From NCBI GenBank assembly GCA_048938025.1, contig JBHLMP010000003.1, forward strand, positions 1-10,851: a stretch of DNA of 10,851 nt. The letters run 5' to 3'. Both the position numbers and the translations under genes were made by a program. Below, one piece after another: positions 1,524 through 10,851 of the stretch. The stretch comes from Promethearchaeota archaeon. Its GTDB lineage: Archaea; Asgardarchaeota; Lokiarchaeia; Sigyniarchaeales; SOKP01. Every line of letters starts with the position of its first letter. Within the stretch, counting starts at the first letter, position 1. Under the pieces are notes generated by a model, which worked only from the letters and a program-made list of their open reading frames with translations, had not been told where the DNA came from and did no database searches.

Positions 1524-2486
1524 TTAACTATTTTGAGATTTATCGAATTTTTTTATGAGTTCTATTATTTGTGCTTTTCTATAAGAAGCAGGAACTTTAA
1601 TATTATTCTTAGCACAATACTCTTTTAATTGATTAACTGTCCATTTGTTATAATCAATTTCTTGCTTTTTCTCAACTTCTTTCTCAATTTTCTTCTGTGG
1701 TGGAGTTGTTGTCATTTCTAAAACTTCTATTGCTTCAATAGTATTATTTTCATTATTGAAATGAACTCTTAATTTATGCCCTTCCAATTCAATAACTTCT
1801 TTTGGGAGCTTTTTTAAAGGTTCCCATTCTGTTTCTTCAACTGGTTTACCAAAAATTTCAGCTTTTTTAATGATAATACCATAAAGAGTATTATTCCCGA
1901 TTAATATATGAGCTCTCTTATAATCATCTGGAAGCTTAACTGAAAGAACTTTTGTTAAAATTTCTTTTTGTGATATACTTGTTGTATCAATCAAACTTTT
2001 TGAAGGTTTGGTTAAAACCTGTTTATTTTTGGTATATAAACTGCTTTTCTGCGTTTTAGGTACTACTTTTTGAGTCTTGATAGGGGGTGGTGAATTATTC
2101 AAAATAACAAACTGAGGTTGTTTATTATATTCTTCTTTTGCAGTTATTTGAGGTTTGAATCTAAACGCATTTAAAAATTCCTGAGGTTCATCTCCTTGAT
2201 CTACTGATACAATCTTACACCGATGAAATTTTGCCGAAAATATTAATTCTTGCTGTAATTCTGTTGCAACGCGAGAAGCGATAAATTTTTTTCTAACTGT
2301 TGATGTCGCACCGTTCCATATATATATTCTCCTAAGATCTTCTTTAACTATTAGAGCAACTTGGGAATCATTTAAAACTTTACTCCCATTGTTTTGACGA
2401 AATTCTTGTTCTGTTATATTTAATCTTTCTCTTTCACCAGTATCGTTCAATTCATATATCATGAAAGTAGAATAAGTATCTGACAT
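1524..2486 (-). CDS. Gelsolin-like domain protein with a second globular domain and a C-terminal HeH/SAP/Rho-N-like motif
   Basis: The N-terminal ~110 aa match a gelsolin repeat (LNDSQVALIV, IYIWNGATS...K..A, VDQGDEPQEFL). A low-complexity K/T/S/P linker and a beta-rich domain follow. The tail DYNKWTVNQLKEYC...IKVPASYRKAQIIELI resembles a helix-extension-helix. Start placed at MSDTY (2486); the ORF track extends to 2543. Confidence 0.75.
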   Translation of the reverse strand: MSDTYSTFMIYELNDTGERERLNITEQEFRQNNGSKVLNDSQVALIVKEDLRRIYIWNGATSTVRKKFIASRVATELQQELIFSAKFHRCKIVSVDQGDEPQEFLNAFRFKPQITAKEEYNKQPQFVILNNSPPPIKTQKVVPKTQKSSLYTKNKQVLTKPSKSLIDTTSISQKEILTKVLSVKLPDDYKRAHILIGNNTLYGIIIKKAEIFGKPVEETEWEPLKKLPKEVIELEGHKLRVHFNNENNTIEAIEVLEMTTTPPQKKIEKEVEKKQEIDYNKWTVNQLKEYCAKNNIKVPASYRKAQIIELIKKFDKSQNS

Positions 2487-2608
2487 TTTATTTTTCTTTT
2501 GAAAATTAGTTAAATACATTATAAGAGTACATATTTTTAACATTATTTCTATAGTTACATAGAGAGAAGATTTATCGTAATACTATAAATGAATGAAGAA
2601 GTTATTAA

Positions 2609-3448
2609 TCACGTCTCACCGCCACCATAAAGAAAAAAATCTGGTATCAGTGTCGAATTTGGTGCTATTGAATATTTTCCTAGATCAGCGACTCCATTTT
2701 CAATTAAAACTTCATCATCTATGAAAAAATTGCCTGTACACTCTCTACTGGGTTTTGTTAAGATAAAATATGCGGCATCTGCTACGATTTCAGGCTTTCT
2801 TGAGTGTTTAATAGCTTGTTCTCCCCCCAATAAGTTTTTTACAGCCGCTGTTGCTATAGCTGTTCTTGGCCACAATGCATTAACCGCAATCCCATCATTT
2901 TTTAATTCTTCAGCCATTCCCAAAACACACATACTCATTCCGTACTTAGACATAGTATAAGCTAAATGATTTGCGAACCATTTTGGATCCATATTTAATG
3001 GAGGTGAAAGATTGAGAATATGGGGATTTTCAGCGTTTTTTAAATGAGGAATACATAATTTTGAACATAAAAAAGTTCCTCGAACATTGACTGAAAACAT
3101 AAGATCAAAACGCTTCATTGGAGTCTGTAGCGTTGGACTTAAGTTTATTGCACTAGCATCATTAATTAAAGCATCAATTCCACCAAATTTTTTTACTGTA
3201 GCATCCACAGCAGCTTCTACTTGATCTTCAAATCTTATATCAGCAACACATGGAAGTGCTTTACCTCCAGCAGCTTCAATATCTTCAACAGAACTATAAA
3301 CTGTTCCGGGTAATTTAGGATGAGGCTCACTAGTCTTAGCTACTACAGCAATATTAGCTCCATCTTTGGCCGCTCGTAAAGCAATTGCTTTCCCTATACC
3401 TCTGCTTGCGCCAGTAATAAATAAAGTTTTATTTTTTAAATGTCTCAT
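2609..3448 (-). CDS. Short-chain dehydrogenase/reductase, HSDL2-like, without an SCP2 domain
   Basis: TGASRGIG Rossmann motif, PHPKLPGT, NPHILNLSPPL, catalytic YTMSK, NALWPRT.IATAA and TGNFFIDD. Confidence 0.92.
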   Translation of the reverse strand: MRHLKNKTLFITGASRGIGKAIALRAAKDGANIAVVAKTSEPHPKLPGTVYSSVEDIEAAGGKALPCVADIRFEDQVEAAVDATVKKFGGIDALINDASAINLSPTLQTPMKRFDLMFSVNVRGTFLCSKLCIPHLKNAENPHILNLSPPLNMDPKWFANHLAYTMSKYGMSMCVLGMAEELKNDGIAVNALWPRTAIATAAVKNLLGGEQAIKHSRKPEIVADAAYFILTKPSRECTGNFFIDDEVLIENGVADLGKYSIAPNSTLIPDFFLYGGGET

Positions 3449-3574
3449 TAAATAATTCACGTTTTTAATTCTTTATTCTACTACATTATCTTTTTTTTGA
3501 TAATATGATTAATTATATTAAATATCAATGCTGATAAATATCATTTATATTTATAATTTAAAAGTAAGTTATAA

Positions 3575-4162
3575 TTATCCTGTAAAATAGGAATTTTTAA
3601 TGTTTTTTATTAGAAAATTTACTTTTTTCTTTTCATTGATAGATAAAAGTGTAGGAAATTTACTTTTGATGGAAGTACCATAATAACTATTGCCAAAAAA
3701 TGTATTTACTCCAACTATAGTTTCTATTATATACCTTTTGCTTCCTAAATGGAGATAAATAGAAATATCATTAATTATTAAAAAATCAGTAGGATTATCT
3801 TTAAAATTATTAAGAATTTTAGATGTTATTTTATAATTAGAACACATATTTTTATAAAGTTCAGATTTATTTTTTGCTTTTAAACGAGGTGGAATAATTT
3901 CTCCTTCAAAGATAAAATTTTTACATTTAAAGCTCTCATTATAGTAATCTTGTATTCTTCCACCTATTTTTAAATTCTTAAAAACAGCTAATTTAGGAGC
4001 AAAATCTAAAATACTAATCTCTTGCGGATTAATTTTTTTTTCCTCTAAAAGAAATTTGACAAATTTTGCTGTATATAATGTCTTTTTTGTATCAGTTTCT
4101 CCATATAATAAAGTAGAATGGCCTATACATTCGTTGAAATTTAAATAATTAATGAGCTTCAT
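3575..4162 (-). CDS. Hypothetical protein, P-loop NTPase-like with degenerate Walker motifs
   Basis: TLLYGETDTKKT resembles Walker A with G>K, and FLIINDIS resembles Walker B. The long ORF is co-oriented with its neighbours. ATG at 4162 preferred. Confidence 0.6.
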   Translation of the reverse strand: MKLINYLNFNECIGHSTLLYGETDTKKTLYTAKFVKFLLEEKKINPQEISILDFAPKLAVFKNLKIGGRIQDYYNESFKCKNFIFEGEIIPPRLKAKNKSELYKNMCSNYKITSKILNNFKDNPTDFLIINDISIYLHLGSKRYIIETIVGVNTFFGNSYYGTSIKSKFPTLLSINEKKKVNFLIKNIKNSYFTG

Positions 4163-4185
4163 ATGCAAAAATGTTAAAATAATAG

Positions 4186-4770
4186 TTATTTAAAAAAATC
4201 CTCCCATGATATTCCTGCTTTTTTTAATACTAACAAAATTGTAAATCCAATTATACATCCCGGAATACAACTTAAAGCGAATAAACCCCAATAAGTCAGA
4301 AAACCTTCAAGTGAAAGAATTTTGCCTATTGGCGAAATTAATTGACCAATCGTTCCTCCTATGAATACCGTGCCTAGTGGTTCTGTTAAAGCAGATAATT
4401 CCACGTTTTTTGGAGCTTTTTTACGCAAAAGATAAGAAAAAGCTCCTACTACTAATGCGCCTGATATTCCCCCATGAAAGGCATGGATTGTTCCAATTCC
4501 TAAAGAAAATCGTAAAATAGCTATACCTAATGCAGTTATACATGAAAAAGTGAGTCCAATTAGAACACCAGTTATCGCATTAACAATGTGGGCAAAAGGG
4601 TTAATTTTAGTACCAAATATTAAAAAATAGGCAAATGGATTAATATAACTTAAGACTAATCCTACTGCTATAAAAATTCCTGTTGTAGCAATTTTTTTAT
4701 TTAAAGTAATTTGAGATGCTCGTTTTTCTTTATTTTCTTTATTCAGATCTAAAGAATTGTTTTCACTCAT
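4186..4770 (-). CDS. thiW: ECF transporter S component, ThiW family (thiazole/thiamine precursor)
   Basis: Several hydrophobic helices with a ThiW-like pattern: P..H.VN...GVL.G, R..LG.GT..AF.G...GAL..G, E.LGT..IG. Confidence 0.85.
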   Translation of the reverse strand: MSENNSLDLNKENKEKRASQITLNKKIATTGIFIAVGLVLSYINPFAYFLIFGTKINPFAHIVNAITGVLIGLTFSCITALGIAILRFSLGIGTIHAFHGGISGALVVGAFSYLLRKKAPKNVELSALTEPLGTVFIGGTIGQLISPIGKILSLEGFLTYWGLFALSCIPGCIIGFTILLVLKKAGISWEDFFK

Positions 4771-8066: not shown

Positions 8067-8957
8067 ATGATAAAGAAGAAAGAAATACCTCAATGGAAAT
8101 TAGATGAGGTAGATAACTTGGTAAATTTATTTAAGCAATATAAGAATATAGCAGTTATAGATGTTGCTCATTTGAATGATAAACAAATTCAAGAAACTCG
8201 GAAAATATTAAGGGGAAAAGCAATTATTAGGATGTCTAAAAAAAATTTACAAATAAGAGCAATTGACCAATTTAAAAATGAATCTAAAAATGAAAATTTA
8301 GATGAGTTAGCAAGTAGCATTCCTGGTCAGTCAGCTCTATGTTTCACTAACATGGATATTTTTGCATTGAAAAAGATATTTAATGAAAATGAATATTGGG
8401 TACCTGCTAAACCTGATGAAATAACTCCAGTAGATATATGGGTACCCGCTGGAGATACAGGATTACCAACAGGTCAAGTCATTTCCGAATTAAATATGAC
8501 TTTACGTTTACCAACTCGCATTCAAAATGATACTATCTGGATTAGAGAAGATACAAAGACCCATGAAGCAGGTGAACTTGTAGAAGTAAAACAGGCAGCT
8601 GTTTTAAAAAAGTTGGGCATAACTCCAATAGAATCGTTAATAAAGATCCATTTTGCGTGGAGTGAAGGAGAAATAATACCAGAGGAAGTTCTATATGTAG
8701 ACACCAGGGGATTCGAACGAGATATGACTAAAGCTTATAGAGAGGCGCTCAATATACTTTTTGAAATGCCATTTTATGTGGATGATATGACTGACGAATA
8801 TATTCTAAAAGCAATAGCCGAAGCTAATACATTAAATGCTATGATATTTGGAAAGGGAGTTCAAGTCACTGCCGAAACAGAATTAAAAGTTGAAAAAGAA
8901 GAAGCTGAAGAAGAACCAGAGGAAGAAGAAGTTGGTATTGGAGGATTATTTGGCTGA
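8067..8957 (+). CDS. rpl10: 50S ribosomal protein uL10/P0 (archaeal/eukaryotic type)
   Basis: IPQWK, PAKP...PVDIWVPAGDTG insertion domain, LKKLGITP, and an acidic tail ending GIGGLFG. Confidence 0.97.
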   Translation: MIKKKEIPQWKLDEVDNLVNLFKQYKNIAVIDVAHLNDKQIQETRKILRGKAIIRMSKKNLQIRAIDQFKNESKNENLDELASSIPGQSALCFTNMDIFALKKIFNENEYWVPAKPDEITPVDIWVPAGDTGLPTGQVISELNMTLRLPTRIQNDTIWIREDTKTHEAGELVEVKQAAVLKKLGITPIESLIKIHFAWSEGEIIPEEVLYVDTRGFERDMTKAYREALNILFEMPFYVDDMTDEYILKAIAEANTLNAMIFGKGVQVTAETELKVEKEEAEEEPEEEEVGIGGLFG

Positions 8958-9019
8958 TTTGGCTTATGAAAATATTATAATCTAATAATAAGATGATTTA
9001 AAATAAGAAAATATTAAAT

Positions 9020-9026
9020 AGGAGGT
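9020..9026 (+). promoter_or_regulatory. Shine-Dalgarno site of rpl12
   Basis: AGGAGGT lies 8 nt before the ATG at 9035. Confidence 0.8.
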
Positions 9027-9034
9027 TTGAAAAT

Positions 9035-9351
9035 ATGGAAAGTATTTATGCTGCATTACTGCTTCATAAAGTTGGAGGAAAAATTACGGAAGCAAATGTA
9101 GAAAAAGTATTAACTGCTGCGGGTGCAAAAGTAGATAAAACTGAAATTACCAAGCTTATTGCAGGATTAAAAGAAACGAAAATAGATGATATCATTAAAA
9201 ATGCTAGTGCTATGCCAGTAATGGCAGCTCCTGCTGGAGAAAAAGTCGAGGAAAAGAAGAAAGTAAAGAAGAAAAAAGAAGAAGTTGAAGAAGAACCTAC
9301 TGGAAGTTTTCTAAGATTTCCTTGTGTACCAGAATTGGTTCTTTATTCTAA
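9035..9351 (+). CDS. rpl12: Stalk protein P1/aL12; predicted spliced CDS join(9035..9305,9335..9351), 95 aa. The unspliced frame ends at 9355 (106 aa).
   Basis: N-terminus MESIYAALLLH..G.KITE..V.KVL.AAG, A/P hinge and charged tail. The conserved G-hydrophobic-G-x-LF terminus (GIGSLF*) is out of frame and is restored by removing 29 nt. Confidence 0.93.
9306..9334 (+). other. Putative 29-nt archaeal bulge-helix-bulge (BHB/BHL) mRNA intron
   Basis: Central 4-bp helix CUGG(9300-9303)/CCAG(9329-9332), 3-nt bulges AAG(9304-9306) and AAU(9333-9335), and exon-exon helix AAGAACC(9291-9297)/GGUUCUU(9337-9343) plus A9299-U9336. Canonical cleavage restores the frame. Confidence 0.82.
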
Positions 9352-9367
9352 CTAATCTTAATAGTGG

Positions 9368-9400
9368 TTTTTTTTTATTATTTTTTTTTTATTTTTTTTT
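9368..9400 (+). terminator. Oligo-T archaeal terminator of the stalk operon
   Basis: Three runs of 9-10 T immediately after the rpl12 stop. Confidence 0.75.
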
Positions 9401-9562
9401 AACTGATTTATCTATATTGTTAATAAAATTATTTGAATACTCTTTTTGAAACATAAACTTTTTTTAAAATTCAAGTTTTTTTAAATTACATTTATCAATT
9501 TGTGAAGATAAACATAATAGACTTTTAAAATTAAAGTAAAAGACACTTGATACTGATCTAAC

Positions 9563-10851
9563 ATGGCAGGAAGATTTCTTAAATTTTTCTCTCCTTTCGT
9601 TCGAATATTACCTGAGATTAAGCAGCCCCAAAGGGAGGTTTCCTTTAAGGAGAAGTTCATTTGGACAGCTCTCGTCTTGATAATTTACCTAATAATGTCC
9701 AACATTCCTCTGTATGGAGTTCAGCTTGAAGAATCCACCGATTATTTTTATTGGCTTCGGGTCATATTGGCAAGTCAGAGGGGCATGCTAACAGAGTTAG
9801 GTATAGGTCCAATTGTTACATCAGGTCTTATTATGCAATTGTTACTAGGATCAAAAATAATCAATGTAGATATGGCTGATCCCTATGATAGAGCTATGTT
9901 TAGTGGAGCTCAAAAAGTCTTAGCTATCTTTTTAACAATTTTTAATGCTCTTGCTTATTTAGCAGGAGGATCATTTGGTAGTTTAAGTGCAATTGGAATT
10001 GATGGAGCAACATTTATATTTGTACAATTACTTTTTTCTGGAATAATCATAATATTGCTTGATGAATTACTTCAAAAGGGGTGGGGTATTGGTAGTGGTG
10101 TCTCTTTATTCATAGCAGCAGGAGTAGCTGGTCAAGTTTTTTGGAATAGCTTTAGTTTTATAGGGGATGAGCAAGGAATACCAAGAGGTATAGTAATTGC
10201 ATTCTTTTGGGTGCTGTTTGATCGTGATCCTAACACAACTATCGGTTCAATTCTTGCACGGCAACAATTACCATCATTAATAGGGATTATTACTACAATA
10301 ATTATATTTTGCATTGTTATATGGTTCGAGTCTACAAGGGTTGAGATACCGCTTGCTTATCGGGGTTACAGGGGGTTCAAGGGTAAGTACCCCATGAAAT
10401 TACTTTATGTCTCTAATATCCCCGTTATTCTCGTCAACGCATTATATGCAAACTTTCTATTTTTCGGTCAGCTGCTGGCAGGTCCAAGCTCTGCATTACG
10501 TGTTTCACAGGGTGGAGCAATTTCCGATTTTTGGGTTGATTTATTAGGGAAGTTTAAAATCCGAGAGTCTCCAACAGGTCCAGGATCTCAACTAATTCCA
10601 ACAGGTGGGTTGATATGGTTACTCACACCACCTTTAGGATTAGCTGATCTAATTGCAAATCCAGTAAAAGCAGTAATATATTTATTCATTTTTACTTTCT
10701 TGTGTATAATGCTTGGGCGCGTATGGGTCGAAGTAAGTGGATTAGCGCCGCGAGATATTGCGGACCAGATACTCGCCTCAAAAATGCAAGTACCGGGATT
10801 CCGTAGTTCCGCAAAGATTATAGAACGCCTTCTGAAGCGATATATACCCAC
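9563..10851 (+). CDS. secY: Preprotein translocase SecY/Sec61alpha (3' end beyond the window)
   Basis: My translation from ATG 9563 is open to the window end: MAGRFLKFFSPFVRILPEI...IPLYG...ELGIGPIVTSGLIMQLL...LLDELLQKGWGIGSGVSLFIA...YPMKLLYVSNIPVIL...WVEVSG.APRDIA.Q...PGFR...RYIP. It is absent from the ORF track because no stop codon falls in the window. Confidence 0.97.
   Translation, partial: MAGRFLKFFSPFVRILPEIKQPQREVSFKEKFIWTALVLIIYLIMSNIPLYGVQLEESTDYFYWLRVILASQRGMLTELGIGPIVTSGLIMQLLLGSKIINVDMADPYDRAMFSGAQKVLAIFLTIFNALAYLAGGSFGSLSAIGIDGATFIFVQLLFSGIIIILLDELLQKGWGIGSGVSLFIAAGVAGQVFWNSFSFIGDEQGIPRGIVIAFFWVLFDRDPNTTIGSILARQQLPSLIGIITTIIIFCIVIWFESTRVEIPLAYRGYRGFKGKYPMKLLYVSNIPVILVNALYANFLFFGQLLAGPSSALRVSQGGAISDFWVDLLGKFKIRESPTGPGSQLIPTGGLIWLLTPPLGLADLIANPVKAVIYLFIFTFLCIMLGRVWVEVSGLAPRDIADQILASKMQVPGFRSSAKIIERLLKRYIP

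Follow-up and report, generated by a model that had tools for sequence, protein, structure and literature searches.

Genomic Context and the Insert in rpl12/P1

The analyzed stretch of DNA (hereafter the window) comprises the first 10,851 bases of contig JBHLMP010000003.1 (115,598 bases) from the genome of a Promethearchaeota archaeon (G000; 3.52 Mb in 88 contigs, G+C content of 29.3%). According to the open reading frame (ORF) list and Pfam, the genes rpl11, rpl1, rpl10/P0, rpl12/P1, and secY follow one another on its plus strand. The subject of this analysis is a 29-nt insert near the 3' end of the ribosomal stalk gene rpl12/P1, which is probably an archaeal bulge-helix-bulge (BHB) intron of the mRNA. 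The unspliced P1 ORF (9035-9355; Pfam Ribosomal_60s, E = 2.4e-10) has the C-terminus ...EEEPTGSFLRFPCVPELVLYSN before its stop, and the long C-terminal tail predicted from it is ...SFLRFPCVPELVLYSN. The codons ATT GGT TCT TTA TTC TAA (IGSLF-stop) are present at 9335-9352, out of frame with this ORF. Deletion of 9306-9334 in silico gives ...EEEPTG-IGSLF-stop, and the boundaries of the deleted segment can be slid leftward by up to 3 nt with an identical product. The features at the locus are as follows:

9035-9305, plus strand: rpl12/P1 exon 1, Met...EEEPTG and the first base of the Ile codon (ORF list; Pfam Ribosomal_60s; 72-91% identity to same-genus P1 genes)
9306-9334, plus strand: candidate BHB intron, 29 nt (absent from 23 of 23 same-genus homologs; homologous inserts in loci L035, L037, L043, L044, L049, L050, and L052)
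9335-9352, plus strand: exon 2, (A)TT GGT TCT TTA TTC TAA, IGSLF and stop, not in frame with exon 1 in the DNA (changes relative to L037 and L044 are synonymous only when spliced)
8067-8957, plus strand: rpl10/P0, the upstream neighbor, uninterrupted, ending ...EEVGIGGLFG (ORF list; Pfam)

The N-terminal 90 residues of P1 were searched against 41 relatives, and the gene was found in 38. All 23 same-genus loci (L002-L024) have an uninterrupted ...PTG IGSLF stop (PTV in one of them); the 29 nt are thus an insertion relative to close kin, and their removal restores the genus consensus exactly. Six loci of another family end ...G(L/I)GALFG. The insert occurs in 1 of 54 species representatives of the genus (G000 itself) and in 2 of 161 of the class (G000 and G119, the latter of a sister genus).

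Bulge-Helix-Bulge Motif of the Window's Copy

The RNA around the insert can be folded into a BHB motif of class hBH, in which the exon helix is present and the intron-side helix is nearly absent. Its elements, together with a competing hairpin, are listed below.

9290-9299, plus strand: outer exon-exon helix h, 5' strand, 9 pairs (A9299-U9336, then C9297..G9290 with G9337..U9344) and one bulge, U9298 (BHB scan; core GAACC/GGUUC found by RNAalifold in 8 of 8 sequences)
9336-9344, plus strand: outer helix h, 3' strand (GGT and TCN codons invariant in intron-bearing genes)
9300-9303, plus strand: central helix H, exon strand CUGG, C9300-G9303 forming 4 Watson-Crick pairs with C9329-G9332 (pairing analysis, BHB scan)
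9329-9332, plus strand: central helix H, 4 bp, intron strand CCAG (in homologs, CCGG and CUGG can also pair, and CCCG has a single UxC mismatch)
9304-9306, plus strand: 5' bulge AAG, 3 nt, predicted cut 9305/9306 (motif geometry)
9333-9335, plus strand: 3' bulge AAU, 3 nt, on the opposite strand of the motif, predicted cut 9334/9335 (motif geometry)
9312-9324, plus strand: small intron hairpin UAAG/CUUG with loop AUUUC (counterpart of the 5-9-bp hairpins in other introns)
9302-9321, plus strand: competing hairpin GGAAGUUU / AGAUUUCC, 9302-9309 with 9314-9321 (free minimum free energy folds)

The offset of the cut inside each bulge was placed by a rule that we assume to apply here; since AA opens both bulges, cutting them symmetrically after 0, 1, or 2 of their bases leads to the same product. 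The frequency of such motifs was estimated by a scan of both strands of the genome (7,047,394 positions x 110 intron lengths), in which the central helix had to be Watson-Crick with at least 2 GC pairs and the outer helix had to have at least 9 pairs. In total, 1415 motifs were counted, corresponding to about 1.8e-6 per specified position and length. The Rfam search of 8900-9600 returned a single, chance-level match to RNase_P (24 bits against a cut-off of 100).

The letters, coordinates, and pairings of a preliminary description of this DNA were all found to be correct on re-reading. Its statement that removal of 9306-9334 yields TGIGSLF-stop agrees with the tail of 23 of 23 same-genus homologs, and its impression of a weak intron-side helix and a relaxed form is borne out by class hBH and by the 4-bp hairpin 9312-9315/9321-9324 with an energy of only -0.1 kcal/mol.

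Homologous Inserts at the Same Site

A large protein collection was searched with the unspliced ORF, giving 460 proteins at E <= 1e-10. Among the best 120 P1 clusters, a ranking that favors insert-bearers since the query's own tail adds score, 15 have an insert directly after EEEPTG and the other 105 have none. Seven of the 15 inserts are in frame (10-11 residues followed by IGSLF) and eight are frameshifting, as in the tail ...PELVLSFNS. One cluster, P0039, reads past the normal stop (...IGSLFSALSESIN), which points to loss of the stop codon or to an error in sequencing.

Metagenome and genome contigs were scanned with a degenerate pattern in which ATT, the first two bases (GG) of the second Gly codon, and GAR codons were prescribed, and CCT, ACT, the T of GGT, and TCN were left free. 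Six further P1 loci were obtained (L037, L043, L044, L049, L050, and L052), and a seventh, L060, corresponds to L035 of G119. The remaining matches (17 of 23 metagenome and 6 of 7 genome loci) lacked a P1 gene and were discarded as arising by chance. All seven distinct insert loci share the L1-P0-P1-SecY context wherever the contig reaches, and their P0 and SecY proteins are 59-78% identical to those of the window over full-length matches; on these grounds, the seven loci are considered diverged orthologs. In L052, about 2.5 kb lie between P1 and secY (positions 1678-4213), two genes that are adjacent in the window and the other loci.

A length of 29 nt is shared by the inserts of the window, L044, and the four closely related L037-type loci; the insert of L035 has 30 nt and that of L052 has 33 nt. 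Excision at the BHB-predicted sites results in EEPTG-IGSLF-stop in 8 of 8 intron-bearing genes. A hairpin of 4-9 bp lies at the center of every insert, and its sequence differs among lineages. In the central helix, CUGG faces CCAG in the window and L044, CCGG in L052, and CUGG in L035, all of which can pair when G-U counts as a pair. When the BHB is imposed on the fold, L044 adopts a strict hBHBh' form at -20.1 kcal/mol, in which the exon helix has 8 bp and the central helix 4 bp, each of the two bulges has 3 nt, and an intron helix of 9 bp stacks directly on the central one; its unconstrained minimum (-22.9 kcal/mol) is built in the same way. In the unconstrained folds of L035, L037, and L052, too, the outer helix, central helix, and hairpin are all present.

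The eight sequences were aligned (alignment A1) with 16 proposed pairs. In A1, 89.1% of cells are paired, a share that falls to 30-56% if the 3' partners are displaced by 1-3 columns. Both sides change at three pairs, and the observed covariation score was reached by 2 of 500 shuffles. Columns 35-41, within the intron hairpin, covary (AU 4, GC 3, GU 1).

A covariance model of the family (R1) applied to 135 family genomes gave full-length matches only in G000 and G119. About 30 further matches of 42 nt each were intron-less P1 ends. Four longer weak matches were rejected, being an unrelated P-loop gene (two), an intron-less P1, and an unrelated membrane protein. The P-loop gene is matched in frame at 26-28 bits in two loci of genus g21, L098 (G111:C78:4008-4073) and L101 (G107:C43:15705-15770; ...IEPTGNLTKIAMASGSTLYF...); these are probably chance matches arising from the common letters GAACCTAC.GG...GGTTC.

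A quick, poorly resolved tree was built from P1 N-terminal regions (119 rows, 16 of them with an insert; P0038 and P0099 were left out). The insert state needs 13 changes on this tree as scored, with the row P0069 wrongly counted as insert-bearing, and hence 12 or 13 once that row is corrected; the well-supported branches force at least two. The rows nearest to the window are the intron-less P0002 and P0001, which has an insert of the 33-nt type. This distribution indicates that the intron is patchy, even among near-identical strains.

Selection on the Reading Frame and Flanking Codons

All six 29-nt inserts, representing three lineages, keep IGSLF-stop intact and out of frame. Among the exon-2 codons that changed between the window, L037, and L044 (three non-independent pairs summed), six changes are synonymous and none are non-synonymous in the spliced frame, compared with one synonymous and four non-synonymous in the unspliced frame. 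The codons flanking the insert are distributed as follows:

Pro: CCT in 8 of 8 intron-bearing genes vs. 8 of 23 intron-less congeners
Thr: ACT in 8 of 8 vs. 2 of 23
First Gly: GGA in 7 of 8 vs. 0 of 23
Second Gly: GGT in 8 of 8 vs. 3 of 23
Ser: TCN in 8 of 8 vs. 12 of 23

The Pro, Thr, and second Gly codons are invariant across five lineages (3 of 3). As a background, the same codon is used across these lineages at 2 of 18 columns of the P1 N-terminal domain having an invariant residue with at least three synonymous codons. The fixed synonymous flank bases coincide exactly with those building the central and outer helices. As judged from these sequences, selection is acting in the spliced frame and on the helices.

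Genomic Reality of the Insert and Read Evidence

A Logan DNA contig of run X1 spans positions 9091-9470 of the window with 0 differences and 0 gaps at a depth of about 35. Run X1 may be the sample behind the window's assembly; its contig consequently serves as a check of the assembly and not as independent support. Three other X1 contigs depart from the window at 9282, 9284, and 9295 and rejoin it at 9444; two of them are deeper (68 and 51) than the window's own contig. In run X3, the match of a near-identical contig ends at 9300. Co-occurring close relatives probably differ at the 3' end of P1, and the differing ends are possibly intron-less alleles. In run X4, the contig of a relative departs from the window at 9303 and continues directly into the IGSLF codons. 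Stretches of the window left uncovered in X3 and X4 carry no weight in either direction. A blastn-short search of the 29-mer with its flanks against the whole genome gave chance-level matches only (up to 17 nt), and an exact 22-mer scan of a collection of genome contigs gave 0 matches.

Long T runs lie at 9363-9400, directly 3' of the P1 stop, and are kept in the closest relative L002. They are probably the archaeal terminator of the L11-L1-P0-P1 unit ahead of secY.

Splicing Machinery

The G000 genome encodes two EndA-family ORFs of about 200 residues (PF01974, 105 and 70 bits) and RtcB (PF01139, 566 bits). The EndA paralog on C66 aligns end to end with the chains of the crenarchaeal heterotetramer (3p1z_B, E = 2.4e-35) and keeps the Tyr, His, and Lys that we take to be the EndA catalytic triad. 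The paralog on C33 has no His at the aligned position. By sequence, C66 would be an alpha-like catalytic subunit and C33 a beta-like one, the loss of His being expected of a structural subunit. Asgard EndA has been described as an (alpha-beta)2 enzyme with an L1 loop that is tied to broad substrate specificity (PMC5829648).

ARAGORN predicted only 32 tRNA genes in G000, 18 of them with introns and several with implausible anticodons and intron positions. Many tRNA genes of this genome are probably interrupted in ways that ARAGORN miscalls, in line with a preprint on heavily interrupted Asgard tRNA genes (bioRxiv 10.64898/2026.10.13.758758).

Interpretation and Alternative Explanations

We consider it likely that positions 9306-9334 are an archaeal BHB intron within the coding region of the P1 mRNA, and we infer that it is cut out and the exons are joined in vivo. 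Within a patchy family of homologous 29-33-nt introns in Promethearchaeota P1 genes, the copy in the window would represent a relaxed (hBH) form. A BHB intron accounts for the restoration of the tail, the motif, the variation between 29, 30, and 33 nt at one site, the frame-independent conservation of exon 2, the fixed bases, the covarying hairpin, and the presence of the enzymes. In the predicted pre-mRNA, the exon codons for E-E-P-T and G-S-L would pair as the outer helix, and CUGG, the last four exon bases before the site, would pair with CCAG near the 3' end of the intron. Both cut sites would then sit in 3-nt bulges on opposite strands, where a heterotetrameric (alpha-beta)2 EndA could cut them. 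RtcB would ligate the exons and circularize the 29-mer, and the mature mRNA would read ...EEEPTG-IGSLF-stop, including the conserved factor-binding tail.

The preliminary description had arrived at the same BHB intron, and this part of it is supported; what has to be added is that the insert is not a one-off but belongs to a patchy family. Two of the checks that it had proposed came out in its favor, with the 29 nt being genomic in the X1 contig and the Asgard rpl12 3' ends having patchy same-site inserts with three pairs changing on both sides. The pairings in its fold were right, and the competing hairpin is to be added to them.

Several observations weigh against a BHB intron. The conformer with the BHB has an energy of -8.7 kcal/mol in the window vs. 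-14.0 kcal/mol for the free minimum with the competing hairpin, a difference of 5.3 kcal/mol, and this hairpin occupies the 5' splice site as well as half of the central helix. Hardly any intron-side helix is formed in the window's copy, and the L037 group (4 of 8 sequences) has CCCG with one UxC mismatch in the central helix, leaving 3 of 4 pairs. The sample is small (eight sequences from about five lineages, with non-independent kin) and was partly obtained with a pattern that forced ATT, GG, and GAR. The fixed flank codons could partly result from the spread of an intron-plus-flank segment and not from structural selection. The positive control was weak, as a clean motif was found under only 4 of the 18 tRNA intron calls of ARAGORN in G000; this probably reflects the miscalling of archaeal introns by that program. 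The sole RNA run, X20, covers 8075-8234 and 10264-10473, outside the junction. Run X20 is labelled a leaf-litter metatranscriptome, and two of its contigs (depth 2.5-3.7) are identical or nearly so to the P0 and SecY genes; the sequence of a sediment archaeon in it could be library carry-over or a real relative.

The best-surviving alternative, which we regard as improbable, is that the insert is real but unspliced and is translated, so that the P1 tail is aberrant without IGSLF (29 nt) or bears a 10-11-residue insertion (30 and 33 nt), with P0 supplying one functional tail. The in-frame 30- and 33-nt inserts contain no stop and could be read through, which counts against a spliced intron; the lower stability of the window's BHB conformer also fits an unspliced insert, and neither of the X20 contigs reaches the junction. 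Unspliced translation could be tolerable for the in-frame inserts, but not for the 29-nt ones, in which IGSLF-stop is kept out of frame in 6 of 6 cases and the substitutions are synonymous only when spliced. Moreover, an unspliced insert does not explain why synonymous flank positions are fixed exactly at helix sites, why the hairpin covaries though the encoded peptide varies between insert types, or how a BHB this good arose at a chance of about 2e-6.

Restoration of the frame by the ribosome, which would either bypass the 29 nt or shift by -1 near CCAGAAUUGG, appears very unlikely. The hairpin inside the insert would suit it, and the GGA preceding the insert superficially recalls what we take to be the take-off site of phage T4 gene 60. 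Bypassing of the T4 gene 60 type involves matching take-off and landing codons and a stop codon after the take-off codon. At P1, the take-off GGA is unmatched by the landing AGA (window and L044) or CGA (L037), and no in-frame stop codon follows GGA. A slippery heptamer of the form X XXY YYZ is missing from the shift point, CCA GAA UUG G. Inserts of 30 or 33 nt keep the frame without any shift, so that a single mechanism would fail to account for the whole family, and the exon-exon helix and the fixed flank codons would be left unexplained.

The insert could also be an error of assembly or sequencing, or a deleterious insertion that arose recently in a single population and is BHB-like by chance. 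This would agree with the rarity of the insert among the genus and class representatives and with the X3 and X1 contigs that leave the window at 9300 and at 9282-9295, but is dismissed as scarcely credible because independent loci carry homologous inserts (7 other loci from different assemblies and 15 protein clusters), the X1 contig spans the insert with 0 differences, and the motif has a chance rate of about 2e-6.

Two modes of origin were also considered and rejected. Against a duplication, whether tandem or inverted, the insert is similar to the end of exon 1 in its last 8 nt only, and this similarity comes from the two-fold symmetry of the motif. A transposon footprint leaves the covarying hairpin and the frame conservation unexplained.

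Significance and Search for Further Introns

Spliced protein-coding genes are extremely rare in archaea. If spliced as proposed, the P1 inserts would represent EndA-type mRNA introns in a new host gene and a new lineage, and mRNA splicing by the tRNA machinery would extend to the closest prokaryotic relatives of eukaryotes. The family offers a natural series for the origin, persistence, and loss of introns, comprising strict, relaxed, and one-mismatch forms, lengths of 29, 30, and 33 nt, and presence or absence in near-identical strains. It also flags an annotation error, as at least 15 database P1 proteins have spurious tails or 10-11-residue insertions.

It is conceivable, though in our estimate doubtful, that removal of the intron from the P1 tail is regulated and works as a switch, making it the archaeal equivalent of HAC1/XBP1, in which EndA/RtcB activity sets the number of functional tails per ribosome. 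Under such a switch, the unspliced mRNA would give a stalk protein without the factor-recruiting IGSLF tail, and translation capacity would be coupled to RNA processing by enzymes that also mature tRNAs and rRNAs. The competing hairpin over the window's 5' splice site would be the element making splicing conditional.

A pilot search of G000 for a second mRNA intron gave 31 BHB-bracketed candidates joining two open frames. None of the top 14, which were inspected, was convincing; the frame bookkeeping was faulty for several, and the clean ones were adjacent genes whose downstream part has its own Met. More such introns may come to light if insertions in conserved protein genes of Asgard archaea are surveyed without presupposing a motif.

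Comparison with Known Systems

The archaeal mRNA BHB introns reported as of 2020 were only those of crenarchaeal cbf5 and of the Haloferax HVO_1309 5' untranslated region (UTR) (PMC7714728). A full-text literature search, mostly without subscription papers and with supplements outside it, revealed no report of introns, either for rpl12/P1 or for any other protein-coding gene of Asgard archaea.

The closest parallel is cbf5 (Watanabe 2002; Yokobori 2009, PMC2738675). Like the proposed P1 intron, that of cbf5 is short, has a BHB or relaxed BHB, and interrupts the coding region, and it is cleaved by a heteromeric EndA of relaxed specificity, which resembles the case proposed for P1. Also like those of P1, cbf5 introns are patchily gained and lost among related species and are mistaken by gene callers for a frameshift (PMC2738675). 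The two cases differ in the host gene and in the lineage, P1 being from Asgard archaea (Promethearchaeota) and not Crenarchaeota. Unlike that of cbf5, the proposed P1 intron lies 5 codons before the stop, so that its removal would alter nothing but the C-terminal tail. Experiments have shown the splicing of cbf5, whereas we infer that of P1. In G000, cbf5 itself is uninterrupted, with both TruB_N matches in one 337-aa open frame without stops.

In Haloferax volcanii, HVO_1309 resembles P1 in having a BHB-flanked mRNA segment that is a substrate of the tRNA splicing endonuclease. Unlike the P1 intron, its intron is 46 nt long, lies in the 5' UTR, and leaves the protein unchanged; it was demonstrated by circular RNA sequencing and an in vitro assay, and the enzyme that cuts it is a homodimeric euryarchaeal EndA (PMC7714728).

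Archaeal tRNA introns share with the P1 insert the pairing of the four exon bases before the 5' bulge with the intron bases before the 3' bulge, and those introns, including many noncanonical Asgard ones, are of the same size range and are processed by the enzymes proposed for P1 (bioRxiv 10.64898/2026.10.13.758758). Class hBH is counted as canonical in that preprint, which covers tRNA genes only and in the text of which the word "mRNA" occurs 0 times. The hairpin of the spliced P1 exons has a 7-nt loop, like an anticodon loop. Unlike tRNA introns, the proposed P1 intron has an mRNA as its host, and the blastn-short search revealed no similarity of the insert to sequence elsewhere in G000.

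In eukaryotes, HAC1/XBP1 contains a short non-spliceosomal intron near the 3' end of the coding region, the removal of which changes the frame and the C-terminus, with an RtcB-type ligase acting in animals. Unlike the cleavage proposed for P1, by EndA at a BHB, that of HAC1/XBP1 is performed by Ire1 at two stem-loops. HAC1/XBP1 is, moreover, a regulated stress switch.

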